Virus record (IMG/VR): IMGVR_UViG_3300019776_000365
Coordinates: 1 to 64,000 of that record
Length of the DNA stretch: 64,000 nucleotides
Origin: a virus
Direction: 5' to 3' (one strand)
Below the pieces are notes generated by a model, which saw only the letters and a program-made list of their open reading frames with translations, ran no database searches and had not been told where the DNA came from. Below are positions 4,265 to 37,389 of this stretch, in pieces (the stretch's first letter is position 1; every line of letters starts with the position of its first letter). Made by a program: the position numbers and the translations under genes.

Positions 4265-5197
4265 ATGACAAAACAAGAAGTTCTAAAAAGATTTAGTAAA
4301 AAACCATACCTTTTAGAGATGGGCGCTGGCAAGTTGTCAAAATGGTTTGGTGTATCTGTTGATGTAATTAAAGAGTGTAAATCTTTGATTAGAGGTTATA
4401 ATATAAAATATGTAGATGCAAAAGATGTAGTATATAAAAAAACTGGCCTTAAAATTCTAATAATAGACATTGAGACATCTCCAATGAAAGCATACATTTG
4501 GAAGCGATGGAAAGAAAATATATCATTACCTCAAACTATATCAGAATGGTTTATGTTATCATGGTCTGCCAAATGGCTGGATGGTGATTTACATTCAGAT
4601 GTATTGACCTCAGAAGAGGTTTTAAGTGAAGATGACAAGCGCATAACAAACAATTTACTTATATTGCTAAATGAAGCTGATGTTGTTATTGCGCACAATG
4701 GCGATAGGTTTGACTTACCAAAAATAAATACAAGAGCACTGCTAAATAATTTTGGCCCTATTAAACCATTTCAAACTATTGATACATTAAAAGTAGCAAA
4801 ACAACAGTTTGGATTTAGCTCTAATAAATTAGATGCATTAGCTATATTTTTTGGATTAGATTGCAAGCTTCATACTGATTTTGATTTATGGAAGCGTTGT
4901 ATGAATGGAGATGAAACCGCATTGTCTTATATGTTAGAGTACAACAATTATGACGTGGTTCTACTAGAGAAAATCTACAAAAAACTTAAACCTTGGATTA
5001 AAAACCATCCAAATGAAGGTCATTTTAGTGAAGAGGCAGTTTGTCCTACATGTGGCTCTACTCATATAAAGTATAATTCAAACTATTATACAAATGCTGG
5101 TAGATATAAATTGTATAAATGTGATGATTGCGGTGCATTATCTAAAACAAGAAAGTCAGAGAAAACAAATATAAAATTAACATCAAATATAAGATAA
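4265..5197 (+). CDS. RNase H-like/DnaQ 3'-5' exonuclease with C-terminal Zn ribbon
   Basis: IDIETS, AHNGDRFDLP and YNNYDV motifs, CPTCGS...CDDCG. Confidence 0.85.
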   Translation: MTKQEVLKRFSKKPYLLEMGAGKLSKWFGVSVDVIKECKSLIRGYNIKYVDAKDVVYKKTGLKILIIDIETSPMKAYIWKRWKENISLPQTISEWFMLSWSAKWLDGDLHSDVLTSEEVLSEDDKRITNNLLILLNEADVVIAHNGDRFDLPKINTRALLNNFGPIKPFQTIDTLKVAKQQFGFSSNKLDALAIFFGLDCKLHTDFDLWKRCMNGDETALSYMLEYNNYDVVLLEKIYKKLKPWIKNHPNEGHFSEEAVCPTCGSTHIKYNSNYYTNAGRYKLYKCDDCGALSKTRKSEKTNIKLTSNIR

Positions 5198-12157: not shown

Positions 12158-12863
12158 GGTATATAAACACACATCACCATCGAATAAGGTCTATATAGGT
12201 ATAACAAGCACCAGTGAGACAAATAGATGGTCAGATGGCATGGGATATAGTAGGCAGCCATATTTTTTTAAAGCAATAGTAAAATATGGATGAATTAATT
12301 TTAAACATGAGATATTATTCGATAATTTACAAAAAGATGAAGCTTATAGGCTGGAAACTGAATTAATAAAAGAATATAAAAGTTCTGATTGTAATTATGG
12401 GTATAATATACATATTGGTGGATATATAGACTTCACAATAAGTAAAACTGGAAGAATTTATAAGAAAAGGACAAAACCTGTATCTATTAATCCAAAGTTG
12501 TGACGCAAGGTGACAAAAAGCGATAAAAATGGAAATATAATAAATATATTTGATAATGTTAGGCTTGCAGCTGAAGATGCAAAAGTTCCAACAGAAACTC
12601 TTAGAACTTGATGCAAATTTAATAAACGTCCAAGAAATAATGATTATATATATTCATATGAAGATAATGCTTCAATAGAAAAAACAATTGGATATAAAAC
12701 TGTAAAAGTAGAAAGATATGATTTATCTGGAAATTACATAGATACATTTGATTCAATTGAAGATGCTGGTAGAATTTTAAATATAAAAACAAATCATATA
12801 CCATGCGTTTGTAGAGGGAGACGAGTTCAAACCGGTGGTTATAAATGAAAATATAAAGAATAA
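12132..12863 (+). CDS. free-standing GIY-YIG homing endonuclease with two NUMOD1-like domains (243 aa, TGA=Trp at 12291, 12501, 12609, 12846); absent from the ORF track
   Basis: YKVYKHTSPSNKVYIGIT, NRW, AIVKYG[W]INFKHEIL, E.ELI, GYN, YDLSGNYIDTFDSIEDA, GGYK[W]KY. Confidence 0.9.
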
Positions 12864-12864
12864 A

Positions 12865-14802
12865 ATGAAAATAAAAATAACATCTATACCAAATAAATAT
12901 TCTAATGGTGGCCAAGTGGACTCCATGAATGGTATGCATCTAAAAAAAGATTTAATCTCCTTTTCTACAGGTGGCACACACGAAGACAATCCAAATGGGG
13001 GAATTATGCAGGGCATTGGTGCTAATGGTCAGCCAAACCTAGTGGAGCAGGGAGAAACAAAGCACGATAATTATATATTCTCAGATAGATTAAAAATTGA
13101 TAAGAATATACAACAAGCTTATAGATTACCAAAATCAACTATTGGTAAATCATTTGCAGATGCATCCAAAATCATCAATAAAGAGACTAAAGAAAGACCA
13201 AATGACATTATAAGTAAGAATGGTCAGAAAGCTATGTTGTCAACACTTACTGAGGCTCAAGAAGCACTTAAGCAACAAGACCAAATAGACCAACAAGATA
13301 ATGAAAAAATAAATGTATTAGGTCATGGTGATTCTATATTTGCTAAAGGTGGTCAAATACATATTAAAAAAGAAAATAGAGGTAAATTTACAGAAGCGGC
13401 AAAACGTGCTGGTATGGGTGTTCAAGAATATGCTCATCATGTAATGGCTCATTCACACAATGCAGCATTACGTAAGCGAGCAAACTTTGCTATACAGTCC
13501 AAACGCTGACATAAAGCCTTTGGTGGTGACTTATTTGCGAAAGGAGGGGATTTGTATGATCATTCGGATTATCAATCCTTGGCTGTAGATAAGGGTGATT
13601 ATATAGAGTTACCATCATATGCAAGTGGAGGCGATTTAGATTTATTTGCTTTTGGTGGAGATATGTCACACTTTCATAGAACAGATCATCAGGGCACTAT
13701 AACATATAAAGATGGCGGCAATTTGCAAGATAATAAAACAATAGATGTTTATGGCGATGATTATGTAAAATCATTAATAGATAAAACTGATAAACCAACT
13801 CTTGATAGGTATAATTTTCTTATTAATGAAACAAAAAGATTAAGAGATTTAAATGACCCAAAATATCAACAAGAATTAAATAGGAGAGCAAATCAATTAG
13901 CTATATTAAAATCATCATTACTTCCTGGTGATGTTAAATCAAAAGAGCTACTAAATGAGCCTGGTTATCAACCACAAAGAAGTGATATTATACCAATGTC
14001 TATATTTGCAAAAGGTGGTAATAAAACAACAAGATTACCAAGTTCTTCATTAATTGGATTAAATGATGTTGGAGTGGATATGTCCAAAGTGTATACACCT
14101 AATTTGAAATTAGAAACTCTTGCATCCAATAAGCAACTCAAAGCTAATCAAGCCGCTGACATGTATGATGTACAACCGCAAGATTACAGCAATTCTTATT
14201 ATAATTATAGCGGATTTGACAGATATGCCCCAGTAATGGCCAATATAGGTTTGGGTATATCTGATATATTCTCAAAACCAGAGAGTGTACAATATGGTAG
14301 ATATACACCAGAAGCTATAACATCAAGAATGGATTACACACCATTTGATACAGAATGAATGACTAATAAACTTAAATCACAGGCAGCAGCTACACGTCAA
14401 GGTATTTTAAACACATCCTCTGGCAATAGAGCTACAGCTATGGCTGGTTTATTAGGCGCTAATCAACAATCTAATGAAGCTATAGGTGATGCTTACATGA
14501 GAGCTGCGCAATATAATCAACAACTTAAAAATCAAGCACAACAGTTTAATCTGGGTGTAGAGCAAGCAAATGTAGCGGCAAAAAATCAAGCTCAACTTCA
14601 AAATCTACAATTTCAGCAACAAGAATCACAAGCTAATATGGCTAATAGAGCAGCACAAAGAGCGGCGGTTAGACAAGCTATTATTAATGCAGCATCTAAT
14701 CTTGGTAGCATAGGTCGAGAAAATTGGGCAGCTAACACTGGCTCTCAAATGTTTGGTTATTCTGTAGATCCAAGAACTGGTAAATTAACTTATAATAGAT
14801 AA
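12865..14802 (+). CDS. cargo/ejection protein (645 aa, TGA=Trp at 13507 and 14356)
   Basis: GGTHEDNPNGG, PNLVEQGE, IFSDRL, IHIKKENRGKFT, ANFA...R[W]H motifs and a Gln/Ala-rich C-terminus. Confidence 0.88.
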
Positions 14803-16479: not shown

Positions 16480-19400
16480 ATGCCAATAAAAGAAGTATAT
16501 GAGGGTGATATAAGCCCAAACGAAGAGGCTAGTGGAATGAAGGCGTACTACTCAAGTGGTAAGAAAAATAAAAACCCTTCATTTCTTAGCGCAGCTCAAC
16601 AAACATGAGGTAGAAATAGTCAGGCTCAATGGTCACGACCTCTTAGCGAGGTTGTTGGCCCTACTGACTATGGTAGTAGTGCATATGATGTTCAGGGTGA
16701 ATCAATGAGCCAAATTGAAGACCTTGAGGATACTAGATCTAAAATACAACCATTTGTTGATAAATTTGGTGCAGGCGTAGGTACGTTTTTAGGAAAAACT
16801 CTTACAGCTACTGCTGGTGGTATTGGTACATTAGTTTATGGTGTGCCAAATGCTATTTTCGGCACAGATGGCACTGCTGGCGAAAAACTTAGAGCTGTAT
16901 ATGATAATGATTTTAATAAGTGGTTAGATAAAATAAATTCAGGCATAGATGATGCATTTACAGTACATTTAGCTAAATCTGAAAGAGAAGGTAGTTTATT
17001 TGATCAAACAATAGGTTCTGCTGGATTTTGGACTAAATCATTTCTTGGTGATGGACTGTCTTTTGTTGCAGGAGCTGTATTATCATCATGGGCAACTGGT
17101 GGAGCTGGTAAGCTTATTGGATGAGGGGCTAAAGGTATTGGTTTAACTGGCGCTTTATCAAAAGGCGCAACTGCTGTTGGGGATGTTCTTAGTGAATCAA
17201 AATATTTATCAAAAGCAGCTAATGTGTTAAAGGGAGCATCATCTATATCAACTGGATTAGAAGATGCAACTCAACTTGCAAATAAAGCCAGATTTGATAA
17301 GTTTATAGCAGGATCTAAGAAGCTAGCAGATGTTGGTCAAAAGTTTGTAGTTGGCTCTGCGTATGAAGGTGGCGTTGAAGCTAATGACTTTATAAAACAA
17401 TCAACAAGTAATTATATACAACAATACCAAGACAAGTATGGGCAACTACCATCTGAGGATGAACTAGCAGATTTTAATAAGAAAATACTACCACAGGCTA
17501 ATGCTTTATTTTTAGGAAATGTTGCTTTAGTTGGAGCGGAACATATGATTGCCTTGCCGCATATTTTTGGTCCAGGTGTTAATACTGCTATAAAAGATGC
17601 TAGAAAAGCTATTGGCAAAAGAGTTGTAGGTGAAGCTGAAGAGTTATTTGTTAAAGATGCAGAAAGATCAACCTTAGGCAAAATAGCAACTGGTGCCTCC
17701 AGGGGGTTAAAGCCAATAGTATCTGAAGGTCTTATGGAGGAGGGTGGTCAGAATTTTATGAAAACATGAGCTTTAGATTATGCTGATAAGAAATATAATC
17801 CAGACTCAGCTAAAAGAACTTATGATTTAATGAACTCTCTTGGTAACGCTTTTAATCAAGCATATGCAACTACAGATGGTTGGAAGGAGATATTAGCTGG
17901 TATGATTATTGGCGGCATGGGTGCCCCTAATATAAATGCTATAGGCAGTATTAGAACTAAAGAGAATGGATTTAAAGAATTTAAACCATTTAGTGTAGAT
18001 AAAGAGAAATCGCTATGGACTGGTGGAGTGTTCGGTCAATTTCAAGATGTTCATCATAAAAATATGATTGCTCAACAGTTGATTGATGATTATAATAAAC
18101 AAGACGCATCAGCAGCCTCCGAACACTTTAATAGAGCTTTATCACAAAATCAAGGTATTGTATCTCAAATAGGTGACATAAACCATCAAAACTCATTAAC
18201 GGATGGATATGATGCTGCAGTTGAGTCTGGAGACCATTATACTGCAAAGAATTTAGAAGATGATAAATTTCACTCATTCATAAAATCAAGAATTGATTCT
18301 GGATATTACGATTCATTAGAAAGTGAGTTGGTAAAACCAATCAAAGATATGACTGATGATGAATTTAAAGAAAGCTTTGGCTATGGTGATAAGCTAATAT
18401 CAAATGAAGAATTATCAGATAGAAAGAGAAAAACTATAGAGCAAGCCAGGAAAAGTATTAAAAATGTCAAAGAAGCTATAAGCACTGTTGATAGTGTTAT
18501 GGATGTTGATTTATCTAAAGAAGATAATAGACTTCATAGAGATTTACTAATATATGCTTTATCTACAAATAAATCAGTTGGCGATAGAATAGAATCTATA
18601 TCTAAGTCCATTAAAGATACAATAAAAGATCAAGCTTGGGGTCAAAATCTTCAAGTGTTAAATGATATAATTTCTAGAGATAAAGAATCTTTAGCCACAG
18701 AGACTGATAGTGACAAAATAAAACTACTAAAAAAAAGGATTGAAGATACAGAAGAAAACATATCTAAAATAAAAAATTTAGAAGCTGAATTGCCAACATC
18801 TGTCATAGGTATGAAGGAGTTTGCTAAAGAAGCTAAAGAAAGATATGTAAATAAAGCTGGTATTGATGATGGATCAAAAGAGGACTTCAATCAATCATTA
18901 GATGACTTAGTTAAACTAATGAGACGAAAAGTAGAAGCTATAGAGTTGTATAACACAATGAAAGATCCTAAAGCTTTTAATAATCTATATAGAACCGAAA
19001 GAATAGATACCAAGATTAGACAATGGCAAGAAGAGGCCTTACAGAAAATAGTTGATTCACAAAATGAAGAGATAGCAAAAGCTAAAGATCATGTAGATAA
19101 TGGTGGTGATCCTATTGAAGCTCAATCTATATCTGGAGCTGAAATAAACAATATTCAAAAGATTGTTGACAATAAAAATCTAATAGATCAATTGGATAAG
19201 GCTAAAACTGATGTAGAGTTTTTAAAAGTTATAAATTCAAACAGCGAGAAACAATATGATAATATAGATGATTTTCTAGAAGATGTTACAGATGCTCATC
19301 AATCAGGTGTTGTATCCGATGAAGAACTAGCGGCTATCAATAAATTATATGGAGATATTTATACTAGCTCTTATCTCTATACTAAAAAACCAGTACAACA

Positions 19401-21270
19401 AACTCCAGATAAACTAGAATCTAAAGGATCGTTACAAAAAGGTAATCCAAATAATTCTGTATTAGGCAAAAATACTGTAAGTCAAGTAGAAAATGAGGCT
19501 AATAATGTAGATAAAACATTAGGAGAATCTGAGAGAAAATCAACCAATAATGAAGGTGAAAAACTATTTGACGCATATGATCATATAGCTTGGTTAGGAA
19601 TGTCTTATGATATATCTGAAGGCAAATTTATAGACAAAGGTGTAAATAAAGATGCATCTAAAATAACATTAGATTTTAAAAAGCTTAATAAAGGTGATAA
19701 AATAACCTTTGAAGTTGTATATGATGACGCATTTATGCCAGGAAAATCATATACAGATGAAGAATTAACAGATTTTGTGACAATATCTATAAAAAAAGAT
19801 GGCGAAATAGTTGGATATGTCCATAAAATTGATTACATTCGTGAGGATAGAATAATTAAGACAGATTCTGATGGTAACGATAACCTAGAACGCAATAAAG
19901 AAGAACTTAGAAGGTTTAGGTCTTTCATCATTAAAAATAAAGGTTGAGAGTCTGTAGTTACAGACAGATGGAATGGTAGGTTGATGTTTAGTAAAGCACC
20001 ACAGCCAACAAGAAATGCATTACCAGATAAAAAACTTAATGTAGCAATAGTTACAGACGGTAATATAACAAGACCAAAATCATTTAAAAGTAATGATGTA
20101 ATTATAAATGAGGAAAAGATTAAATCTTCAGCTAAAGGTTATTTTAAAAATGGAGCTTATGCAATACTGCCAGTAAACAAAGATAATACAAACAACTATT
20201 ATATAGCAGTGCCATTAAGCCCATCCAATTTGGCGCAATCACCTCTTGAATCAGCTAATATAATAGCTCATCTCGTAAGGATGTTTATTAAAAGTCAACT
20301 GGGAGATATATCAGAAGGTGATGCTTTTAATAGAATATCTAAAGATATATCAGATAAAACAAAAGTAAAAGACTTAGATGGTGATCCTATAAATATGAAT
20401 GCCAAATCACTAGAAGGTCTTAGAAATATAATAAGTTTATTTACATACCCAAGGCAGTCATATAGAGATGATCTTGGTGTTACGGATGTTAATGGTAATA
20501 TATTTGGGATAAACTACACCAAAGATGGCAAGGCTTTAGTATTATCATTTGGTGTTGCTAATGATTTAAATACATATACAATATGGTTAAATAAACCATT
20601 AGATGAAGAAACCTTTGATAGAATGACAGAAGGGATGATAGAATCTCTATCACAGCAGTTTTTCTATCATAATAAAAACTTAACTGGTCAAACCATTAAC
20701 TTTCCTAAAATATCAACAATTAATGGCAAGATTGATGTTGAGTTCTCAGAAATGCCTTATGAAGAGTTTGTAAAAGATCATACACAAACAAACGTATCAT
20801 CACATAATATAGGAGATGATATTAACCCCAACTATATATATACTATACAATCTAATATTGTATATAAAATGCCTACTAATGATGAGTATGGTTCTATTAT
20901 AAAAAAACAAGAAGAACCAACTGAAGTTCCTAATAAACCAGAAGTTAAAAAAGCTGAAGTTGATAAAGATGTGGAGAGTATTGGCTCATTATTTTCAGTA
21001 GAAGAAAAACCAGAACCAACTAAGCCTAAAAGAGAGCGTAGAACTGGTACAGATGGTAAAGCTAGGCCAAGAGCTAGCTCTTCTAATTTTATGCCAGACT
21101 TTACATCAATAGAGACTTTAGAAGTAAATTCTGGATTTAAAATAACCCCACCGTCTAACACGTTAGGTATGAGCGTTTTAGAATTCTCTAAAAGATTTGA
21201 TTCAGAATATAGAAGATCATTTATGAAGATGGTTAGAGAAAAACAAATAGAATTTACATGCAAGTATTAA
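16480..21270 (+). CDS. giant ejection protein 1 (1596 aa, TGA=Trp at 16606, 17122, 17767, 19945)
   Basis: ORFs 16705, 17224, 17830 and 19981 share one frame joined only by TGA. Gly/Ala-rich membrane-like segments, EG..EA and EG..EEG.Q motifs. Confidence 0.88.
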
Positions 21271-21286
21271 TAAAAATATATAAAAA

Positions 21287-24200
21287 ATGATTTGTTCATC
21301 AAACGATCCAAAAGTAAAACAGTTTGAGACTATAGTAAAAGACAATGGCGCAGCAGTTGATGCTGTCCATTGGGCTTTGACTAGTTTTAGTGGTAATGAT
21401 GTAAGAAAAGTTAATGATGCAATTAAGTTTGTAGAACGTATTAAATCAGCTAAACCAACAAGTAAATCTGATGCTGATAAGATATTATCTACGTTAGAAA
21501 AGCAAGGCCTTATAAAGAAAGTGACTACTAGGGCTGGCGATCACTACTCAACTATACACCCAGAACTTCTTAATTATATTATTGAAAATAAAAGAAATGT
21601 AATTAAATCAGCTCGTGGAAATATTAGTGATAACGAAGAAGCGCTTCCGTATGACTATTTGTATTCTGTAAAACCTATCAAAGCAAATACTCAGGATATG
21701 GCTGATTTTGATGATAAAACCAGACTTGAAAAAGTTGGTTTATCTATGGTTGGTACATCATTAATGTCTACCGATGGAGTTGTAAGGATTGAGTTGGTAA
21801 ATCAAACAGTAGACACAATAGTAGAGGATATAGCAAGGGCCGTAATAGATTCAGGTGATAAAGGTATATCAAGGGATGATGTTAAAAAGATTTTTGATAC
21901 ATACTATGATACATTTGCTAGTATAGCTGATGAGTTTGAAGAGGATGGCAATGAGCTTGGCGTTAAACACGCAGAAAGCTATCTCAACAGTTGGAGTAAC
22001 CTTGAAAATATGGTTCTTGACGCTTTAAAAAGAAGGGCTGGTATTGTATTTAAAAATAACAAGCAAGAAAATATTACAGATACTTTATCAAATACAGATG
22101 TAGAAAAAATATCTGAAAATAGTGGTGCTGATTTAGATGGTGCTGATAAAACTCAAGGTATATATTCGGATGATTTTTCTATCACTCTTGATAGTAAGAT
22201 TGGGTTGTCTGGTAGATTAAAGCTATTTATGTCTACATTAAAGAGTGGTAAGGTTCACTACTTAACTAATGAGCCATTATTTGAAAAATTTGATACGGCA
22301 TACAATACTCTTAATGCTATCCTTTCTAATACAGAGCCTAACTTTGGCAAGATGATAGCTAGATTGGATCAATTTAGAGATTATGAATGAATTGCCGATC
22401 TATCAGACAAACTAAAAGCTCAAGGTAGAGATAGCAAATTATCCAAAGAGTTCATTACGGCGATGAATAAACACTACGTTGATATGTCATATATAAGCTG
22501 GTCTAATATGGGCTCTAATGGCTTTAAAATGGCTATTAATGGTGACAATTCAAATTCCAGAGTTAGAATGATATTTAATGATTGGAATGAATCTTTTTAT
22601 AATAGTAATATAGTAAAAACGAACTCTAATTATGTGCAATACTATGACACAAAAGCTGCTAATGACGCTGTGGCTGCATTTGACCATATGTTTGAAAATT
22701 CAGGCACAATTGATGCTCAAACCATTGTAAATACTATGGGTCTTGTTGGTATTAGATTGTCAAATAATACAGCAGAAAATCTATTAAAAAATGGATTTAA
22801 ATATGGAAGAAAACAACTAAATACAAATCAATTATTTGATATAAAGAATACTAATTCTCCAATAACAAGTGTATATAAAAAATTAGCTGCTATATCTAAA
22901 TTAAAAGACAACGTAGAGGTTGGTTCTGATGAAGAGTTAGATTTTCTAAAAGGCGGTGCAATGAGAGCATTGGCTGCTATGGAGTCTAAATACACAAAAC
23001 ACCTATACAGTAACTCATTTCAATCAGGTAATAAGACAATATTTTCATACACTAATGATAAGTTTATAGTTGATAGGTTTTCAGATTTACTTAATGGATA
23101 TAATAATGGAGATTATTCATTATTAGATAGTTTATCTACAGATGCCTTTGCTAAAAACTCAAGATGGTTAACACAGCTATTAAGAGCGAAAGATGCTACT
23201 AATGATAATGATACAGCCTTTTCTGAGGTGTTTGATTTTCTTTACCTATCATTAGATCCTCTTAAAAAAGAGAAAGGCGAAGCCGCTGATAGACCATTAG
23301 CTGATTTATCTCCAAAAGAGATACTGGCGGCTAAGTTAGCCTTGATGTATAACAATGGCATGACAATAGCTGGTGATAAAAATAGAGTTGGTAAAATGTT
23401 TTACCCAACAATGTCAGACAAAACCACTATGATTGCCATACAGAATATATTATTATCAAGACAATATACAAAATTAGACACCGATAATAATGGCAATATA
23501 ACTGTTAACAACGATCTAGTAGATTATATATATGATAATGTAGTTAAAGCTGAAATGAATAGAATGTATGCTATTCAAGAGAAGACTAAAAACTATAGAG
23601 AATCATTAAATGTTGAAGGTTTTGATGGTGGTGCTAGATATTTCTATACAATACCAGAATTGAATGGTATAGCCGACATGTTTACATGAGATGAAGCTTC
23701 TGGTAAACGTTATTTAAAGCAAGAGGATGACTTTATAAAATCATTACCTTTAATTAAAGAGTCTATCAGGTTATCATTAAACGCTATTGTTACAAATCAG
23801 ATAGAGCAATTTAAAAAAGAAGGTATTGGGTATGCGGTTGATGCTGAAAATAAAGAATTGCCATTGCAATATATAGATAGCAGGTTGGTATCATCAGTTA
23901 GAGATTCTTTGGATGATAAATCACTTAAAAATATATCAGATAATATAGCCGCCGACTTTGCTGTTAACTATTTCTTGCATAATCTTAATGTAGCGCAATT
24001 GTTCCATGGAGATTACGTTAACTACTTTAAGAAAAATAAAGCTCAAGAAGAGCTTGAAAAGCAGTTAAAAACAGGTAATGTTTCAGACCTAGCATTGCTG
24101 TATGACGCAGTTAAAGAAACATTTGATAACTTAGGCAAGCGTCTTGCTGCAGATTTAGCTCCTGGCTATGAGGCTGACTATGGTGAGTCTAAGCCATTTA

Positions 24201-25756
24201 TTAAAGTAACTACATCTAATGATAGAAATGTTAAATCATTAGCATCAGATATAGTAAAAGAAGTATTCAAGGATGGTAAGAAAGATCAATCTGAGTCTGA
24301 TAAAAATTCAATAGCTGCATGGAGTAACATTAACTCATCTGACGCTCAATCTTGGAGTTCTTTGGAGTTTCACTTAGATACACTTTATAACTTTGGCAAT
24401 AAATTGGTATCAGAAACTGACTATAAAAAACTAAAAGCAAAAATAAAAGAAGCTAGAGATAATAATAAATATAATGAGTTAGATTTTTCTCAGGATGAGC
24501 TATCTATTATATTAAATCCAACTAAGCCGTTATATTCCAACAATAGACAAGTACCACTTGATGGTGATAGTACTATCGGTGTTAGATCATATATAAAAAC
24601 ATCTTCATTTCCATTAATACCACAATTAGTTAAAGGTACTGATCTAGAGCATGTTGTGAATGCAATGGAGAATGGCGGTGTTGATTTGCATGTATTTGAG
24701 TCTGGTTATAAAGTTGGTTCTACAATACATAGCACTGATAGTAAAGCAGATTCTAATAGTAAGCTAGACTTATTTGATAAAGATGGTAATATGCTATATG
24801 ATAATGTAGCTGCCTTATCTGATAGTAAAAATCACATAATACTTGATATAAAAGGTTTTAAAATACAACAAGAAGTTCCATATCATGATCATCCTGGATA
24901 TATCAATAAGGGATCCCAGGAGTCTAAGTTGTTATTCTCAAACATCAGAGCAATAGAAGGCTTTGAATATGATGGTAAAAAAATGAATGGCGCAGAGCTT
25001 GAAAAAATATATAACCAAAAGTATAAAGAGCTATATAGAAAAGAAGCTGAAAAACTTAGAAATGAAGTATTTGTAAAAGATGCTGATGGTAATCCTACTG
25101 GTCAAGTGGACATACATATGATTCAGAAGTTGTTTAGAGAAGCTGCTAATGATAGAAATTATTCTATCAACGATAAGATAGGTTTATCTCTTGATGATAA
25201 AAATGAAGCATTTAAATTTCCACTATGGTGTTTGCCTGCTGCTCACAAATATGAATCACTACTAATATCTATAGTGGATAATAGAGTTAGAAAGCTTAAA
25301 ATACCTGGTAATTCATTTGTATTAGGCTCTGAGGCTGGATTTAGATTTAAAGATCAAATAATAACAGATAAAAAAGACCAACAAAAGATATTTAAAAAAT
25401 ATCAAGACCAAATAATATTTACAAGTAATGCTGTAATAGAAAATGGTGAGATAAATCTTCAAACATATAGAAGAGATGGTAAGAATATGAAGCCTACTCA
25501 GGTATTTATACCATGTAAACTTCAAGGAAAGAATGGTCACTTTATAGACTTAATGAAATATACTATCAAAAAAGATGGTAGATTATATATAGATGAGAAT
25601 AGATTTCCTAAAGAACTCTCAAATATGTTTGGCTTTAGAATACCAACACAAGGGCACAACTCTATGACATCAATAGAAGTGGCTGGATTCTTACCAGAGG
25701 CTTGTGGCGACTTAATTATAGCTACACAAGATTTGGTTGTACAGATGGGATCGGAT
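21287..25756 (+). CDS. virion RNA polymerase polyprotein, exon 1 (TGA=Trp at 22388 and 23687)
   Basis: SDAQS, KVG, KIPG, FRIPTQG and QMGSD motifs of phi14:2 gp66-type two-barrel RNAP. Confidence 0.9.
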
Positions 25757-26027
25757 AAACGTTAATGTCCGAGTAAAATCCTGTGAATTGCTGGAAACCC
25801 CTTAGAGTAATTCAAACTACAACATAGATAGTAATATCAAATGTGAATGTTTAAAAATTGAATTAATTGGGCAATCAGCAGCTAAGTAACTATCCTGTCA
25901 ATTATGATAGTTAAAAGTTCAACGACTAGAGGTGAGCCGACAGAGCAATAAAACCTCAATAGCGCAGGACACCTTAATGGTGATGATATAGTCTAATCTT
26001 TATAGAAATATAAAGCTAATAAAAATG
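25757..26027 (+). mobile_element. ORF-less group I intron (271 nt) in the RNAP catalytic motif
   Basis: P1 TCGGAT/GTCCGA with U-G at the splice site. P10 ACGTTAA/TTGACGT. Core elements AATTGCTGGAAA, AATCAGCAG, TTCAACGACTAG and GATATAGTCTAA. Terminal G. Splicing restores GSD|FDVDKL. Confidence 0.95.
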
Positions 26028-29000
26028 TTTGACGTGGACAAACTATACACATACATGTATGCTACGAAAGAAATTATCGTAGATAAAGAAAAATCTAAGG
26101 AATTTAAAGCAAAACTTAAAGAGTATTATACCAAAGATCAGATAGAAGCTCGTAATCAATTTGGTGATATTGTAAATATACTTAATAGTGATATTGAGTT
26201 GACAGAAGATCAAGAGTCTATGCTTATTGATACACTAAATAGTATAAAAGAAGCTCATAATGATATTAAAGAAATTAAATCATGGCTTAAAAATAATATA
26301 AAGATTGTTAAAGATGAGGAAAAATCTTTGTTTAATGACCTTTTAGATATACATTTGGCTGTATTTAAAAATGGTAGTGATGATTTGTATAGATTAATTA
26401 TGGCTCCAAATGGTTTTGGTCAGTTAAAAACTGGTAAAACCACTGGACTTGGGTTTGATATTGAGAGACTAAAAGACAACGCTAATAAAAATAGATTAAA
26501 CTATCTATCTCCAGAATACCAACAGATGAAATTCCTTAACGGCACTTCAGGCAAACAAGGTGTGGGAATTTTTAGTTCGCTATCTATGTTTAACTCAATC
26601 ACCCAAGGCAAAGAGCTTAGATATGTTAATAAGTCATCAGATAGCGATAGAAGTGTATTCAGTGTTACATTTGGTAATGAAAAATCTAATGGCGAGTTGG
26701 GTTTATTAAAAACAATCAATGGAAAGTACTTCACATCTAAAGTTATTGAAGCGTTTCAGTCTGCATCTGTAGATAATGAGAAAGAACAAATTCTATACAA
26801 ACTAAATATAAACAAATACACAGCACCCGTTATTAATGCTTTAGCTGTTTTAGGCTTTGATGAAGAGACTATATGTTATTTCATTAATCAGCCTATAATA
26901 GAATATTACACAGAATTTATGGCATCTAAGGATTCATCATTAAATGATTTCGATCCAGATGCCGGCGCTAATGTTTTTGATAAAATAGAGAATTTTATAA
27001 TAGGCAAGTACAATATAACTGATATTGACAACTCATTAAATAATTCTGGAGTTGATGTTTTAAAAGAACAAATTGCAACTAAAGAACAAAATAGATCTAA
27101 AAGTTTTTGGGAAAAACAACTTGGATTGCTTAGAAAATTTGAAGAAATTAACGAAGTTGGCAATTCAGTTCAAGCATTGATGCAAACCGTAAATGCAGAG
27201 TCTAAAGGACTCGGTAAGACATTGTTTGGCTCATTATCAAGAGAAGATAAAATTAATGATATAGATGATGTAACTGAGAGGTATAACTCTGGTAAGTCAG
27301 CTACAGGTATTATTAATGCAGGTAGAATTCTATATGAATTTAATGAAGATGGTGAGTATACAACTAATGAGTTTAATGGAAAAATCACAGACTCATTAAA
27401 TGGTTTTGTAGCAGAGTATGGCACTAAAATATTAAATAATATTGGTTCTCAAATATTCCCATATAGAAAGAAGCCAATTAATGATATATTTGATTATCTA
27501 AGAGAGCTATTAGGCAAGAAAGGTTCTTCAATATCTCAAGATGAAGATTTTATGGGTAAAACTTTTACAGCAATGAAGTCGTATTTATTCTCTAATACTA
27601 ATCTATATGGAGATAAAGTTGATTTAAAGGCTGAAAGAAAACGTTTATTTCTTGGTGAATATAAACTATTAGATCCAAATAATCCTAACGGAGAAGCTAT
27701 ATTAGTAAACCCATCACTTGCTGACACCATAGAAGCATTAAAAAATGAAAACATAGGTAAGTCTAACATGCTACTCAGGATGCTTACAGTGGACAAAAGA
27801 ATGACCTCTAGCGCTGTTAAACTGGTTAAATATAATGCAGCATCTGGTCAAAATGCAGATGAGTCTGAAATACACCAAGCATTTATAGCTTTATTTAGAG
27901 AAAATGTGCCATTAGAGTATAAAATTGGTGATAAAATTAATAAGATAAACTCAAGAGATCTTGCTTTAGATTTAATTAAATACACTTATTTATCTGGTGG
28001 CTCTCAAGAGGCTATACAATTCACTAGATATATACCTATAGATGTGCTTGAATATATTGGATTTGGCGATAGAATCAATACTATAGCAAAAAATATTAGC
28101 TTATCACATTTTGGTACAAGTGTAGAAAAAAATTCAATTAAAAATTCCAACTTTGTTGAACAGTATTTACAACATAACCCAAGTAAAGTGCCAGTCAAAA
28201 TTAAAGGTAAACTAAACAAAGGCAATAAAGATTTAAAAAATGTTCAAATAAAAGATGGTATTGTTTGGAAATTCACTCCAAACTTTACAGTAGATACAAC
28301 TAAAGGTTCCGCTGATTATATGTTAGGTCAAAAATATGTTGTTGGCATGACCGACAATATGAAATATCTAATATATAAATTTAATGGTACTGAGTTTGTA
28401 AATATACCTACACTTGGAACATTTGGTATGAGTGAATATGACTTTAACCTACCATCAGGAGAAGTTGCTCAATCTGTAATTACATCAAGAAATATAACTC
28501 CTTTAAATGAAAACAAACCTAGTGATATTAGCAATAAATTATCACAACAGGTTAAGCAAGAAGAGTTAGATGTAACAAAAGAATATGACTTATATAAGAA
28601 TTCATTAGATAATGAAAATCAAATTAAAGGTATATTAGAGTTAATATCAAAAAATGGTAATGAAGCCAACAGTCGCATTGCTAAAAAGCTATTAGAAAAC
28701 ACTCACCTTTTAAATTCTATTAGTGATTATAATTTATCTTATGGAGATGTTGGTAGGTCATCTGGTAGGCACAACATGTATGATAAAACTATAACCATAT
28801 CTAATATTAAAAACAAGTTTAAATCAAAAGATAAACTTGAAAATACTTTAGTTCATGAAATAGTTCATGCATATACTGTTAGAACGCTTAGATTAATATT
28901 TGATGATAAATTCAAATCAGAAAATATAGAAGAGTTTGAAAATCTAGATCCTAAAATTATTGAATCCGCTCGTAGAATTAGATCTATAAGAAGAGCTTTA

Positions 29001-31691
29001 GTTTATAAGGCTAAGTCATCTTCTAAAGAACTTAGCGATAAACTTAAAGACATAGAAGCTTGGTGGGCCAACAACAAAACAACTAAACTTACAGAAGAAC
29101 ATAAATTTGCTTATTCATTGAGTGATGATTTTGAGTTTGTCTCAATGGCGCTTACAGATAGTAGTTTTAGGTCAGAGATTGATAAACTAGATTCTATAAG
29201 TGATAATAATAGCACTCTAAAGAAGCTATGAGACGCTTTGCTTAAATTCTTAGGTCTTGATAGTGTATCTAATATAGATAAAACATTTATTGAAAACAAT
29301 ATATTTAATTTTATAGATACTATTGAAACATCTATTAAAGAACCATCAAAAAAGATTGACAAGAAAGAATTTAAAGATAATGAAGAGTATAGAAACTTAT
29401 CCAATATACTTGATGAAATAGAGTCTAAAAAAGAAGTTGAGATAATTAAAGAGCCAGTTAAATATTACGAAGGAAATATAACTCCAGATAAAAATACTAT
29501 ATTTGTTTTTGGTAGTAATCCAGAAGGTCGTCATGGTGCTGGTGCCGCTAAAATAGCGAGAACACAATTTGGCGCTATTTATGGTCAAGGTGAAGGATTG
29601 CAGGGTAATGCATATGCTCTACCAACAAAAGATCTCAGGATTACCGAAAATAAAGGATTTAAATATATATCATTTGATCAAATCGTAGAAAACATTAAAA
29701 AACTATATGAAGTTGCCAAACAAAATCCAGATAAACAATTCAAAATAGCTTATAGAAATACTACGACAACATCTTTAAATGGATATACTGGATTGGAAAT
29801 GATTGAGATGTTTAAAACTGCCGGTGATATTCCATCAAATATTGTATTTAGTAAAGAGTGGATTGAAACTGGCGAATTTAATAAAAAAGAAGAACCAAAA
29901 GTTGAAGAGCAAACAAAACAAGAAGATCCAAAAAGTAAATCATTTTCATATAAAGGTGTATCAATAGACACTGAATTTCAATTAGGTGAAGACCAAGACA
30001 AATCACTTAAAGAGTTAATAGATTTTATTGATGGCTCATCTGACACAGCAATGACACTACAAGGTGCTGCTGGTACTGGCAAAACAGCTACAATTGGTTA
30101 TCTTCAGAAATACTTAAACAAAAAAGGTTATACTCCTTTTGTTTATATGGCTCCAACACATGCAGCAACTGTAGAATTAGCATTTGCTACTGTTAAAACT
30201 GGAAATACATCTATGCCATTTACTGTAGCTAAGGCTGTAAGATATGATAGTCTAAATAAAAAGAATGTATTTACCATGAGAATAAATGAAATTTTATCTT
30301 ATGGTGGTGTTATAGTAGTCGATGAATCTTCAATGCTTGATGATAATGACGTAAATGCTATAATAGAAGCATCTGAAAATATTGGTGTTAAGGTTGTTTT
30401 TATGGGTGATGAGAAGCAGATACCAAAGGTTAGCAAAGAAGGTGGTGATGTAATGTCATTATTTGGTGAAGATTTTGGGACTATTAAAAAAAGAGTATCA
30501 TCTGCTTTTACGAAACTAAAGCAAACAAATCTTAGACAAGTTTTTAGACAATCAGACAATGGATTGCTTGCACTTTTATCTAAAATGAGATCTCAAAATA
30601 ATTTTAAATTATTTAAAGTGAATAACAGAAAGTCTGTAAAATTTGTTGATAGAAGTGAGTATAATAAATTATTAAGGGAAGATATATTAAACGATCCTGA
30701 AAATACTATTGTTATATCATACACAAACGGTTCTGTTCAAGAAGTTAACAAAAATGTTAGATTAATTAGAGGTATGAGTGGTAGTCCAAAAGTGTTTGAT
30801 GTTATCATTGGATATATAGGGTATGCCAATAAAAAGATAGATGCTGGGAATATAGCTAATAGTGTTCAATATACTATTGATACAATACAAAGAGATGGCT
30901 CAGAACTTAGAATTATAGCAAATTCTGATAAACTAAAACAACTAGTTGATTTAGGGATATCTGGTATATCTAAAGTAGCATTTACTAGATATTTGCAGTT
31001 ATCACAAGGTGATAGTCTTTCTATTGATGATATGACAAAAGAAGATTATGACAACAACAATGAAACATTATCTAATATATTTAGATCGGTGCATGAATTA
31101 AATATGGCTTATGACAGAAAACAGATTAAATATTACACATATCTAAATGCATTAGCAGAAAAAACTGCTATTTTAGCTGAATTGTCTGTTGGTGATAGTT
31201 ATATTTATAATCCAAAAATCGATAAAATGGAGCGTTATGATCAAAAGATTCATAAAAACATCAAATCATCTGGTAGTGGGTCTTTGTTGTTTGAGAAGGG
31301 CGTTGATTATGGTCATGCTATAACAATACATAAATCTCAGGGATCTACTATAAACAATGTTTATTTTGACGCAGATTCAATAAATTCAGCTAGAGATACA
31401 AAAATACTTGATGAAAAAGACAATCAAGTCACAACTGAAAAAATGGCTTTAGCTTATGTAGCTATGAGTAGAAGTAAGAATAAACTTGTTGTAAATAAAG
31501 GTAGTCAAGCTTTTGAACAGATAGATGAAAATGAAGTTGAATCATTGCCTGAATTTAACGACTCTAGTTTTTTCGAATTAACAGAGGATGAAAGCAAAAC
31601 TTTAATTAAAAAGCATGGCGACAAAGCTATAGAGATGTATAATAACTTAAATGACGAACAAAAAGAAATAATACTTAAATGTTTAAGATAA
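26028..31691 (+). CDS. virion RNA polymerase polyprotein, exon 2, with zincin, macro-like and SF1 helicase domains (TGA=Trp at 29229; about 3377 aa in total)
   Basis: FDVDKL, SASVDNEK, HEIVH, FVFGSN..GRHGAGAA, GAAGTGKT, DESSM, GD..Q, TIHKSQGS and YVAMSR motifs. Confidence 0.9.
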
Positions 31692-31692
31692 T

Positions 31693-34600
31693 ATGGCTAA
31701 ATGTATAATACATAATGATAAATTTAAAGACCTGGTTGAAAAATCAGGTCTTAACTCTATGCAATTAGAGGCTGAGATGAATCTTTGGATGACTAGAAAT
31801 AATACAGATATTTGGCCAACTCTTAGTCAATTGGGTATTGAATTCAAAGATATAACAAAAGAACATAAAGGCATTATAAGAAATAGACTTTCAGATATAA
31901 TCCCAAACATATCTGAAGATAAATTTAAAGAGATATATGAAAATTATACTTCATTAATGGGTAGAGGCGGTAGGCCTGGGAAGGAATTGCCTTTTAATAA
32001 ATTCAAAGCGTTTGTTTCAAATGCAAATGTGTATAACTATAAAGATACTTTTATTTTTGGACACTATGATACAATAAATAATGTTTTTATAACTACCATA
32101 AGTAGCAGCCCAAGTAGTAAAGAACTTTTAGCTGAAGCTATACCAAATATAGCTAAGAATTTTGATGTTATAGGATTTGCGCCAAAGGATGTTGTTGGCA
32201 AATATAAAAGAAGTGGATACGTTGTTAGCGATGCATTTTTTAATTATAATTTTAGAGGCGAAGAAATGAATAAATTTCTATATGCATCAAATCCTAATAT
32301 AACAAAACGTATATATGGTAAAAATATAGAAGATTTATCTCAGAAGGAAATATTGGATTTAGATAATAGATCGTTGGGGTATATTTCATTTAGAAATCTT
32401 CTTGACGAATTAGTTACAAATAAAGATAATTATAACTATAATATTGTAAACAATAACCTAAAAGAGCTTAGGGTTCCAGCTCATCAAAGAGAGAGGTTTT
32501 TAAAAGAAATAAAAAATGGTAGATATGAATATACAGAATACTCACTAATACCAGCAATCAAAAAGCTATACGATTTTAAAAAGGTTGATATTGATGAGAA
32601 AGACGAAAATGCTCTAAATCAAATAGTTCCAGATACCGAAAATCAATTAAACAAACTGTTAGTCAATTATCTTTCTAACTTTGGAATAAAAACAGAATAC
32701 ATTGAAGATATACAAAATAAACTTGGTATAGATTCACTAGGAACTGTTGATATTCTTAACAAAATTGCATATGTAGATAAAGATAATACTGAAGATTTGC
32801 CGGAAATTGCAGGTAAATTTATAGCATATATGCTTCAACACAACCCATTGATAACATCCACATATGAACAGCTTAGAAAAATAGGTAAATATAAAAATAG
32901 TAATAAGGATGAATTGTTAGATATAATAGGCGAACTTATAGCTAAAGAGTTGCACAACAAAACGGATGTTAATTTACCTAAATCTTTAGCAGAAAAAATA
33001 CAATCTATAATTGCATATTTTTTTGATTTACTAACAAAGGCCAGAATAAATAAAATCAACAAAGATATTGGAGTTATTGTTGATTCAATCTTATCAAATA
33101 ATAAATCATTAATAACCGCAAGTAAATACAAGCCAGGATCTCCTGGTAAACAGGTTTTGCAAGTGTCACTAAAAGAGGCATTAAGATCTGATAGTTTTGC
33201 TAACTCTATAGTTAACAAGATGGCTGATAAAGGATTTATTCTAACTGGAAGTGTTGTTCTTTCAGAGCAGGGCTCTATATTTAGACCAGAAGAAAATCAA
33301 GTTCATGATTTAGATTGGGTAAATCCTCATAATGAAGAAAAAACTAATGAGATATTAGATGAAATATATCCAAATAGAAAACATATAAGAAATATATATA
33401 ACGAAGGTGAAGAGTCGTATACTCATACATTTTTAATAAGTCCAGAAGGAACTAAAATAACAAACCTAAAACTTGAGGGGTCAAATTCCATAGTTAGATC
33501 ATACAATATAGTAAATGATAATAATGAAATAGTTGGCTCTTATTCCAATGAAAATGGTGTTGAAAGATCTAATGGTATTGAAGGGAAGGCTATAGATCTA
33601 TTTATGAATGAACGTAACAAATTAACTCCAACTCAAACAATATTAGAATCTGGAATAGTTTTAAACATGTCAAATTGAAGAGATATTTTTAAAGCTAAAC
33701 TAAGATATGCAAGATTAAAAGATATCTGAGACTATAATAGATTTATACCAAATGAAAATATAACAATAAAAGAAATTGCAAAATCAGAAATTAAAGGAGA
33801 AACTTATAATTCCACAGAAGATGCCCCAGATATGACAGAGCCAGATGATATTACCGAAATGGGAACTTTATTTGACATAGAAATACCTGATGAATATAAG
33901 CTGTCAGATTTCAACTTAACAGAAGAAGATGAAGATACTATAAGTCAAAGCTCATACGCTAATCTTACAAGGATGCTTATATATAGACGCAATGATATAT
34001 ATAATGACATGCAAAATACTAGTACAGCCATTAGAAATGCTAAAGATGAATCTGAAAGAACCAAACTTAGAGAAAAGTACGCTGAGTTAAAAAGCAAAAT
34101 GGACTCTATCGTTGAACGTATAGATAAAGCCAATCAGCTTAAAAACATATCTCAATTAGTTACATTTGGTGAAGAGGATTTATCTGAGGCTATAAAGTTG
34201 TTAGAAGATCCTAATTTAACAGAGCATGGCCTTAGATATGCTAAAAGAATTGTTGATTTTTGGATTAAAGTAGCTGATTTTAATGTAGAGCGTGAGGGCC
34301 ATGTTTTATTTGGTAAGAGCTACGATAAAGTTATATCAGATAAAGAAAAAAATGAGTTTTTAGATTTGGCTAATAGAAAAGAAACTGGTGCTATAGCTTT
34401 GAGTCATATAATCAATGGGCTATCTAGAGATTATATATCAAAAATGGTTAATAAACAATTAGATGGGACATTTAGTATAAAAGATATATATAAAGCTATA
34501 GAAGATATTAACTGGTGGAAAGCTAATGCATTCTCAATACAAGACTATTCTTCGCCATTATTAACGGCTATGTATAAAACTATGCGTCAAGCCGACATGG

Positions 34601-37389
34601 ATGCTTCTAAAGAGGCTGAAGTGCTATCTAAACAGTTGAATGATCTACTTAGTAGGGTTAACAAAAAGCTAACATCAAAAGGAAGTGGTAGATATAGGAT
34701 ATTCTATCAAGAAGAGAATGGTAAGCTAAATGGTAATCTAGTAAGGATATATACAAAGAAATATCAAGATACAAAAGAAGAGTTACTTAAAAAAGCTCAA
34801 AATGCCACTGGTGACAATAAGGCTAGAGCTTGGGATGATTTTAAAAGATGGTCTAAAGCCAATGAAGATCTAATAGATATTAGATTGTTGTTCCCCACAG
34901 AAGAGTTAACTCAAGATCAACAAATAGCAGCAGATAAACATAAAGCTCATATACTTAAAATGTTGGGTCAACGACAGTACGATAAAGTTATGAGTGAAAT
35001 TTCTGAAGCTTTAATTGATTATGATATATCAAGAAATCTAAAGAAGAATCAATTAGAATTAGATGATACTTTATCTGAAGATGATAAGTTTTTTAAACTA
35101 AAAGAGTGAGAGCATAAGAAATCTCCATATATTGAGATGGAGAGACGCTTGGGTAGTTTAGAAGATGATGGTACATACAAGGATTCTAAAGTTATGTTAG
35201 GCCCTAATAGAACATTTGCAGACAAAGGCGTTAGAGGTCTTAGAACTATTGCAAAAGAGTATTTGAGTGATGGTACAAAAACAGAATGGTATGATCCTAA
35301 ATTTAAAGAAATATCTAAAGATAAGGATTTGTTAGAGCTGTATAACTTCATATACGATACTATGGATTATATGAAGACATTATTACCAGAGCATCAGAGA
35401 AATCAAATATCAACTAATACACTACCATTTATAGAAAAATCTATTGTTGATATGTTTTCTGAAAACTCCGCTATTGGCATGGCTAATATGTGGAGTGAGA
35501 TACAGAACTCATTTATGATTAAAAACTTAGATGAACGCAAATATGATGAAATTGATGTAACAACAGGCAAGGCTATATCAAAGGTAAAAGTTACCACCTT
35601 TATGTCTGGAGATAAGAGATTAAATGATGCTATAAAAATAAAAGAAGCTGAGTTCATAGCTAAGACTGGTAAAAACCCATCAAAAGAAGATGCAGTAAAA
35701 TTTAGAAAAGAAGCTTTAGATGATTTAAATAAAGAAAGATCATTTGATTTGCCATCATTAATAAAGATGTATACAGGCTCGTTATTGGCCTATAAGCATA
35801 AATCTAACGTTATAGATATAATAGAGATAGCTAGAGATGCCGTTGATGAAATAAGCGAAATATCGACATCTAATGCCGGTAGAGAGCAAATAGATCCATT
35901 GACTGGTAAGCCTAGAGTTCAAGCTGGACTAACACACCTCAAAGAGTCATTAGATTACGCCATGGATGCTTTTAAAGGGCAGCCAATACATACTAGAACG
36001 GCTGCATCACAAAATAAAAAATACAACCATAAAGACAAAGTAGAATTAAATAAGTTATTATCTACTAAAGCTTTGTTGGATGAAAAATTTAATAAAGGTA
36101 AGATTAGCAAAGCAGAGCATGATAAGCAAATATCTGTAATAGACAGTAAAATAAACTCATTGGGAGGATATGCTTCTTTTGAAAAAGCTGGTGAAAATGT
36201 ATTGAAATACATTCAACTTAAAGGCATGGGATTTAATGCTATAGCAGGTGCTGTCAATCTAACTACAGGCTGGTTAGAGAACTGCATTAGATCTGCTGAT
36301 GGTAGGTTCTTTGATTCATCTCAATTAGGAGCTTCATATAGAGATGTTATGTCTACTATATACGACCCTATGAGAAAAAATAGCACTACTAGAAAATTGG
36401 TAGGTATAGAAAAGTCCTTAAGGATATTAAATAATCCAGCTCATGAGTTGTATAAAACCGAGTCTAAGTTTGGAAAAGTAGCTTATATTATAACAGAAAA
36501 GACTGAGTTTGTGAACGTTATGTCTATGTCTGGTGCTTATCTTAGAAATATTAAAGTTAAAGACGCTAAAGGCAATGATTCTAATCTATATGAAGCATTT
36601 AAAGAGGATGGGTCTATTAAAGATGGCTGGAAGTTAAGCAATACTAAAACTAATGATGAGTTTTTGTTTGATGTAAGCCAAGCTATACAAGCTTTAATTA
36701 AAAGATCTCATGGTAACTACAGAGATTCACTCAAGGGTAAAAAAACTATATTGGGTCAAATGGCCTTTCAGTTTAGGACTTGGATGCCAGAATTGTACAA
36801 TTCAAGGTGAGGAGCAACTCAGTATGACTATATACTTAATAAAGAATTTAAGGGTAGATGGAAATCATATGGCACATTAACTGGTAGTGAGTTTAATGGA
36901 AATACATTTACAGCAGCAGACAATACATTGTATACATTAGGTCAGCTATGTAGAAAGATATTATTTATGAGGACTTCATTTGATGGTAGGATGTCAGAAG
37001 TTGATGCTGCTAACATGAAAGCAAACCTTATGGAGCTTCATTTTGTACTTGGTACTATAGCTTTGATGTTAATGTTAAGAGCAGCCATTCCAGATGAAGA
37101 TAGAAAGAAAAACTTTACATATAATATGTTGATTAATCTTATTACAAGACAGCAGAATGATATATTAGTTTTCGCTAACCCTGGGACATTTGAGCAGATT
37201 AATAAAAATGTATTACCAGTAACAAGTGTTATATCTGATACTAAAAACTTAATGACGGCTATTAAAAATGAATTTAGCGATGATGATAAACAGCATGGTA
37301 AATCATTTGTTAAGGCCGTTAAGATGGTCCCACTTGGAGGCCAGCTAGTTAGAATTGGTCAATATGGATCTAAAGAAATAGCTCAATAA
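31693..37389 (+). CDS. giant ejection protein 3 (1898 aa, TGA=Trp at 33676, 33727, 35107, 36808) with internal nucleotidyltransferase-like domain
   Basis: Four ORFs in one frame joined only by TGA. HGNY, QFRTWMP and GRWKS motifs. Internal LTGS...DLD. Confidence 0.88.

Follow-up and report, generated by a model that had tools for sequence, protein, structure and literature searches.

Results

A putative virion RNA polymerase module encoded in three pieces

We analyzed a stretch of 64,000 nucleotides (nt; hereafter the window) corresponding to positions 1 to 64,000 of IMG/VR virus record IMGVR_UViG_3300019776_000365, and focus here on three adjacent genes, A, B and C, whose giant products carry cysteines at the ends that face each other. 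The record is a complete viral genome of 90.8 kb with terminal repeats, and the GC content is about 30%. Judged by homology, A, B and C are the three pieces of a crassvirus virion RNA polymerase cargo module that elsewhere is a single polypeptide of 5000-7400 amino acids (aa). Homology and position in the late-gene block also suggest that all three proteins are packed in the virion and ejected. The genes and their junctions are laid out as follows:

16480..21270, + strand: gene A, 1596 aa with TGA read as Trp; phmmer homology to the N-terminal part of A-B fused relatives
21256..21270, + strand: C-terminal tag of A, T-C-K-Y-stop; Cys codon TGC at 21259-21261
21287..25756, + strand: gene B exon 1, 1490 aa; begins MICSS, with Cys3 at 21293-21295; ends ..QMGSD, the first Asp of the catalytic DFDVD
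25757..26027, + strand: group I intron; Rfam RF00028 match at 25729-26015; boundaries from protein homology
26028..31691, + strand: gene B exon 2, 1887 aa; rest of the polymerase, zincin-like HEIVH, SF1 helicase and the tag LKCLR-stop, with Cys at 31680-31682
31693..37389, + strand: gene C, 1898 aa; begins MAKCII, with Cys4 at 31702-31704

The late genes of the + strand are fragments under the standard code and become long frames once TGA is read as Trp (4, 3 and 4 in-frame TGA codons in A, B and C, respectively; + strand, window 1-37389). A tRNA(UCA) is encoded at genome positions 71652-71724, outside the window, and the in-frame TGA columns match Trp, Tyr or Phe in standard-code homologues, with none matching Cys. 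We therefore read TGA as Trp in these genes; a reading as Cys or selenocysteine was rejected because the homologue columns hold Trp or other aromatics. Spliced B comprises 1490+1887 = 3377 aa.

The initial annotation of this DNA had described the terminal cysteines of the three proteins as the pattern of a linear A-B-C chain, and every element of that description was confirmed. The sole Cys of A is residue 1594, third from the C-terminus (FTCKY-stop), with none at the N-terminus. On the spliced, TGA=Trp reading, B starts MICSS, ends LKCLR-stop and contains 6 Cys in its ~3377 aa. C starts MAKCII, has 3 Cys in total and none at its C-terminus. Cysteines make up 1.06% of residues in the whole phage, and the five proteins of the cargo block (12835-37389) contain only 10 in ~8080 residues, 4 of which face a junction. 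If 10 Cys were placed at random in the 6871 aa of A, B and C, all four facing windows of 4 residues would be filled with P = 5.8e-10; at the genome-wide frequency of 1.06% the corresponding value is P = 3e-6. The terminal-Cys pattern of the window is not a product of chance.

Terminal cysteines are present where the module is cut and missing where it is fused

An exhaustive profile-free search with part of B yielded 457 relatives, of which we analyzed the best 150. These are mostly giants of 3500-7400 aa, and about 105 of the 150 have a Cys within their last six residues. In dozens of B relatives the terminal Cys is the only one in ~4000 residues; among 58 single-Cys proteins of more than 2500 aa, it lies in the last ten residues in 51 and in the first ten in 2. 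The relatives without a C-terminal Cys are mostly longer and Cys-free throughout, and their last ~1100 residues are homologous to C (phmmer), the homologous segment of C being residues ~750-1890. The C-terminal Cys of these longer relatives is thus missing because a C-like part is fused on. Counting proteins and loci together, 0 of 29 B-C fused forms end in Cys, and all of the forms without a C part do (125/125). Ten exceptions stand outside this count, five of them fragments. Four of these five stop where the window's own standard-code fragment stops (..KL before an in-frame TGA) and were probably cut at a recoded stop. Three further exceptions have a C-terminal remainder of ~1000-1300 aa without a match to B or C, which may be a diverged C part, and the last two (P0034 and P0085) fit none of these explanations.

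The junction between A and B behaves in the same way. A is homologous to the N-terminal ~1400-aa extension of A-B fused forms (phmmer, 6e-42 for L028_1 and 9e-24 for P0037; also 1e-16), as are the separate upstream genes of other loci cut at this site; control queries with C and two upstream cargo proteins gave no match to that extension. An N-terminal Cys is found in 8 of 10 proteins that start where the window's B starts. As for the two exceptions, the start of P0028 seems to have been called too late, the corresponding locus frame (L010_1) sharing its C-terminus and starting MNC, and P0035, which opens with a P-loop motif, may be a fragment. Where the N-terminal extension is present, just 1 of 107 proteins carries a Cys at its N-terminus. 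Fused forms have no Cys at the junction, and often the whole 5000-aa protein is Cys-free.

Facing cysteines occur at 54 of 55 junctions

An alignment-based scan of viral contigs provided 53 loci with 10-kb flanks, to which other scans added two. Frames on the + strand were called from the first ATG and labeled by homology to A, B and C, giving 53 non-redundant architectures (including the window and phages Fpv1, crAss001 and crAssphage) with 55 junctions. Three cut sites recur: J1 separates an A-like piece from B (the arrangement found in the window), J2 falls within B around residue 1260-1280, and J3 separates B from C. A Cys lies at most 9 residues from both facing ends at 54 of the 55 junctions, so that the survey of orthologues called for by the initial annotation finds the terminal cysteines conserved, co-occurring and missing where the pieces are fused. 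The sole exception, L006, has overlapping, Cys-free polymerase frames (38-nt overlap, L006:8078-8115) and probably represents a frameshift in a single protein, whether programmed or introduced by sequence assembly. Of the 54 paired junctions, 49 have the C-terminal Cys at 0-2 residues from the end, and 50 have the N-terminal Cys at position 3-5. The outer ends are nearly devoid of Cys (first-piece N-termini 2/34, one of them a length-filter artefact; last-piece C-termini 0/45). The modules contain 186 Cys in 280,441 residues (0.066%), of which 58% face a junction. The closest relative of the window among the fetched loci (L060, ~40% identity, TGA=Trp) has a B ending in IIIKCL-stop and a C beginning with MAHC.

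We placed these states on a FastTree phylogeny of the B core (168 rows), on which the minimum number of state changes is 9 for J1, 8 for J2 and 19 for J3. Phylogenetically independent pairs on supported branches gave 8, 6 and 5 contrasts, respectively (19 in total). In ~7, 5 and 4.5 of these, or ~16.5 of 19, Cys changed opposite to fusion, and in none did it change in the same direction; the tree being approximate, these contrast figures are rough lower bounds. For J1 alone, a sign test gave p ~0.016. The rule is not one inherited accident, and the facing ends nearly certainly work as a pair. We did consider that it might reflect chance, a gene-calling artefact or shared ancestry without function: the pattern was chosen after being seen, many of the loci are mutually related, and starts were taken as the first ATG. 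This explanation is scarcely credible given the P value of 5.8e-10 in the window, the pairing at 54 of 55 junctions over three cut sites, the independent tree contrasts, and the presence of the same rule in curated annotations of cultured phages.

Two observations were made alongside the census. All lineages split in the middle of B have a gap of ~490 nt between the halves (L009, L008, L011, L012, L016, L019-21, L025, L034, L038, L039). Rfam found no intron in these gaps, and a ferritin-like open reading frame (ORF) is there instead; that of L009 (L009:8668-9153) encodes 161 aa and matches Pfam PF00210 at 1.7e-12. As this ORF adjoins the facing cysteines, an iron or redox role is possible. Separately, one locus (L059:9728-12448) encodes a 907-aa middle piece with Cys at both ends (MAYC.. 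..NDCLGGGI-stop), between a 3240-aa piece ending ..ETIC-stop and a piece starting MSCPN, which may represent a fourth cut site.

The rule holds in cultured phages of four genera

The same arrangement is followed in the curated annotations of cultured phages from four genera. In Fpv1, gp33 (4401 aa) has its sole Cys at 4400 and gp34 starts MAC; in crAssphage, gp45 ends ..FSCM-stop and gp44 starts MSC. Two phages have the chain order seen in the window. In phi14:2, the sole Cys of gp67 (1797 aa, ending ..NTIC) is its last residue, gp66 has only Cys3 (head ACK..) and Cys2179 of 2180 (tail ..QECK), and gp65 (1421 aa, head SCK..) has only Cys3. In crAss001, gp47 has its sole Cys at 2339 of 2341, gp50 has Cys5 and Cys2404 of 2412, and gp49 has its sole Cys at 5. 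Since crAss001 gp47 is encoded on the strand opposite gp50 and gp49 and the Cys pattern still predicts one gp47-gp50-gp49 chain despite the strand switch, gene order would not be essential.

The module proteins of phi14:2 and crAss001 are known virion cargo by mass spectrometry, and the phi14:2 gp66 polymerase has a crystal structure (Drobysheva et al.). The phi14:2 paper called the fused polyprotein 'likely cleaved' and leaves the cysteines unmentioned, and a literature search found no paper tying Crassvirales polymerase proteins to terminal cysteines or disulfides. The modules of phi14:2, crAss001 and crAssphage share with the window the DFDxD polymerase, the zincin HExxH, the C-like protein and the terminal-Cys pattern. 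The window differs from them in having polymerase and zincin in one protein together with an SF1 helicase, in its group I intron and in its use of TGA for Trp.

The crAssphage locus also encodes an 857-aa protein, gp47 (L057:1783-4356), whose sole Cys is second from the end (..KQSCR-stop); the neighboring product, gp46, is Cys-free.

If the terminal cysteines were to bind the portal, the capsid interior or other cargo, or to homodimerize, rather than to connect piece to piece, a terminal Cys without an obvious partner such as that of crAssphage gp47 would be readily accounted for, and intermolecular disulfides do occur among the tail proteins of crAss001 virions (PMC10172136). This is quite unlikely, however, as an account of the rule as a whole. 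The cysteines are paired across each cut and vanish together on fusion, and their numbers always balance: the first piece has one at its C-terminus, a middle piece at both ends and the last piece at its N-terminus only.

The facing ends carry recurrent head and tail sequences

The last ~15 residues of upstream pieces are acidic, then hydrophobic, and Cys-ended, whatever domain precedes them (e.g., EEFKRICK, EKYLLICGK and, in the window, EQKEIILKCLR). AlphaFold2 predicts two confident helices for the tail of the window's B, the Cys being located where the second helix ends (predicted local distance difference test score, pLDDT, 81-91). Heads of downstream pieces are of two types, C-P-N-K-N-x-x-E-W-K-x-L-V-x-x-x-G or C-x-Y-x-V-N-G, each present at more than one junction class, and for the head of the window's C the model shows a small domain of helices, the first of which closely follow Cys4 (pLDDT 79). 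Searching fused proteins with a hidden Markov model of the first head type gave no significant hit; the head tag is therefore no ancestral junction sequence to which only a Cys was added, and on this comparison it seems to arrive with the split rather than to pre-exist at the junction. Foldseek matched the C-head model to no PDB entry at E<=0.001, and no Pfam family passed the threshold in the terminal 100 aa of heads or tails.

A chemical role for these cysteines, as nucleophiles in a splicing-like ligation, a thioester or self-cleavage, is brought to mind by the early Cys of the downstream piece, which recalls the residue after an intein, and by the zincin-like protease motif of the module. 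We regard it as very improbable. Pfam detected no Hint or intein domain in A, B, C or their terminal 100 aa, and the downstream Cys is only 2-4 residues past the Met. The tags are only ~15 and 30 residues long and have no Pfam match, and the upstream Cys is followed by 0-2 variable residues with no conserved catalytic block.

A disulfide between facing cysteines in cyanopodophage A4

A structural precedent exists outside the Crassvirales. In the electron cryo-microscopy (cryo-EM) structure of the cyanopodophage A4 pre-ejectosome, gp27 and gp26 are joined by a Cys1715-Cys5 disulfide, and the C-terminal helix of one ejection protein docks on a helical partner (PNAS 2025, PMC12002296). In the record of the Anabaena phage A-4L, gp27 (1717 aa) has Cys1715 as its sole Cys (..NPCQF-stop) and gp26 (1114 aa) has Cys5 as its sole Cys (MSKHC). 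These are adjacent, Cys-poor giant ejection proteins, with the same syntax as FTCKY-stop/MIC and LKCLR-stop/MAKC in the window. Unlike the window, A4 belongs to the Saffermanviridae, has no virion RNA polymerase and has one link instead of a three-protein chain; its disulfide is treated as a structural detail and not as a rule tied to gene fission (PMC12002296). A phmmer comparison of A, B and C with A4 gp25-gp29 gave no match at E<=10; the likeness is one of mechanism, not of family membership.

The A4 structure bears on the question of whether the facing ends dock with their Cys pair binding a metal ion, or aiding a non-covalent clasp, and form no disulfide. Co-occurrence alone is silent on the chemistry, some tails have a His beside the Cys (KHCK), the conserved flanking motifs of heads and tails could dock by themselves, and a ferritin-like gene is found at one junction class. 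A metal-bound or non-covalent clasp is nonetheless unlikely, since a metal site needs more than the single Cys that each partner supplies, no second ligand is conserved, and the same syntax in A4 corresponds to a disulfide in the map (PMC12002296).

The giant virion RNA polymerase of N4 (Schitoviridae) offers a second comparison. Like the window's module, it is ejected with partners, and its cargo strongly avoids Cys (none in the 3500+644+150 aa of gp50, gp51 and gp52). Unlike the window, N4 has no terminal Cys, hence no clasp, and its polymerase is unrelated and T7-like.

Intron, domains and neighbors of the polymerase gene

The group I intron of B scores 94.1 bits against a gathering threshold of 50 for RF00028 (Rfam). 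Splicing from 25756 to 26028 restores GSD followed by FDVD (continuing FDVDKLY..), aligning with the homologues' conserved catalytic GSDFDVDKLYTYMY. A splice at 25738/26016, taken from the ends of the Rfam model, was dropped because 25756/26028 restores DFDVD. The catalytic DFDVD motif of a virion polymerase gene is thus interrupted by the intron, with GSD on one side and FDVD on the other. L060 has an insertion at this site as well, which carries an ORF for a LAGLIDADG homing endonuclease (L060:1837-2544).

B has the DFDxD motif, the homology to giant RNA polymerases and the zincin HExxH of a Crassvirales-type virion RNA polymerase module. Its polymerase region matches PHROG 16227 (2e-58), and tblastn of B detected Fpv1/FpV4 (4e-46) as well as crAssphage gp44 and crAss001-like phages. 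Among cultured phages, those of Flavobacterium psychrophilum in the FpV4/Fpv1 group are the closest (~24-27% identity), and gut crassviruses come next. The zincin-like HEIVH lies at 28854-28868, in a region with weak Pfam matches to Peptidase_M76/SprT, and its H, E and H are invariant in two alignments (A1 and A2). An SF1 helicase (~29979-31493; AAA_30/PIF1/Dda-like; PHROG 325, 5.5e-56) is fused to the C-terminal part of B before the Cys tail; many relatives have this helicase and others lack it. The window thus combines a three-piece chain, an intron in the catalytic motif, recoded stops and a helicase-bearing polymerase protein in one case.

Two Cys-free proteins are encoded just upstream of A:

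12835-14802: 655 aa
14807-16465: 552 aa

A homologue of the 552-aa protein is the gene upstream of the module in L002-L004. Cys avoidance covers the whole cargo block, although these two upstream proteins are unclasped. A megablast search of phage genomes with the 21-kb module gave zero matches, and searches for related loci with single window proteins as queries found none.

Discussion

A proposed disulfide would restore the continuity of the split module

We think it probable that at each cut a head-to-tail disulfide restores the continuity that fused relatives have by peptide bond. The intermolecular disulfides in the crAss001 tail (PMC10172136) are in keeping with this view. Wherever the module is split, a short amphipathic helix closes the upstream piece, its Cys 0-2 residues from the terminus; in the downstream piece, a Cys at position 3-5 precedes a small helical head. 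On exposure of the packed particle to oxidizing conditions, the facing cysteines would form an intermolecular disulfide, rebuilding a continuous A-B-C thread of ~6900 residues. The near-absence of other cysteines would prevent wrong cross-links in unfolded or densely packed cargo. Such a thread would hold the three parts at 1:1:1 as they pass the tail one after another, and host thiol systems may cut the links after entry. The disulfide chemistry, its timing and its purpose are parts of this proposal that we infer, and the chemistry, ordered co-packaging and ejection, and reductive release are supported only by analogy with the A4 disulfide. Possible purposes are threading through the tail in sequence, a fixed stoichiometry, cohesion of the few molecules injected, and reductive release.

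AB toxins provide an analogy, in which two chains stay joined by an interchain disulfide while they are translocated, and this bond is then reduced in the cytosol. It is an analogy only: the toxin chains come from cleavage of a precursor, and their cysteines are not at chain termini.

A more far-reaching version of the disulfide model, for which we would put the chances at about even, is that of a portable, redox-cleavable 'cysteine clasp', made up of a ~15-aa acidic, amphipathic, Cys-ended helix and a Cys head. This clasp would have been installed with each split, at no fewer than three sites, creating a ~7000-residue thread that host reductases separate, and would have originated independently in A4-like cyanopodophages.

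Several points weigh against a disulfide-linked thread. These proteins have not been observed to be disulfide-linked in any crassvirus, and the crAss001 cryo-EM and mass spectrometry paper, in which the cargo proteins are unresolved, reports no such link (PMC10172136). Recombinant phi14:2 gp66 is active alone under reducing conditions. N4 ejects a Cys-free polymerase, which means that a phage can in principle do without a clasp. Particles are assembled in the reducing cytoplasm, and the anoxic gut is home to many crassviruses; oxidation must be late or may be partial. With a Cys at both ends, B could cyclize or polymerize unless the tags give specificity. The window's B also has four internal Cys, crAss001 gp50 has its C-terminal Cys 9 residues from the end, genes were taken to start at the first ATG, and the tree behind the contrasts is approximate.

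Implications for the Crassvirales

In the human gut the most abundant phages are the Crassvirales, and our findings bear on how their megadalton cargo, including the RNA polymerase for early genes, is packed and delivered. The pairing of cysteines at junctions can aid annotation: a Cys pair marks a true protein junction, and a break without a pair points to an intron, a recoded stop or a frameshift. The window fits this prediction, since neither its intron nor its in-frame TGA codons come with a Cys pair; the break made by the intron in B is not a protein junction, and 3/3 of the window's gene interruptions other than protein junctions lack a pair. If the rule holds, it would explain the near Cys-free state of the cargo proteins and how 1:1:1 delivery is ensured. 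It would also explain why fused and split forms of the module are interchangeable, and would argue that what is selected is continuity, not polyprotein cleavage.

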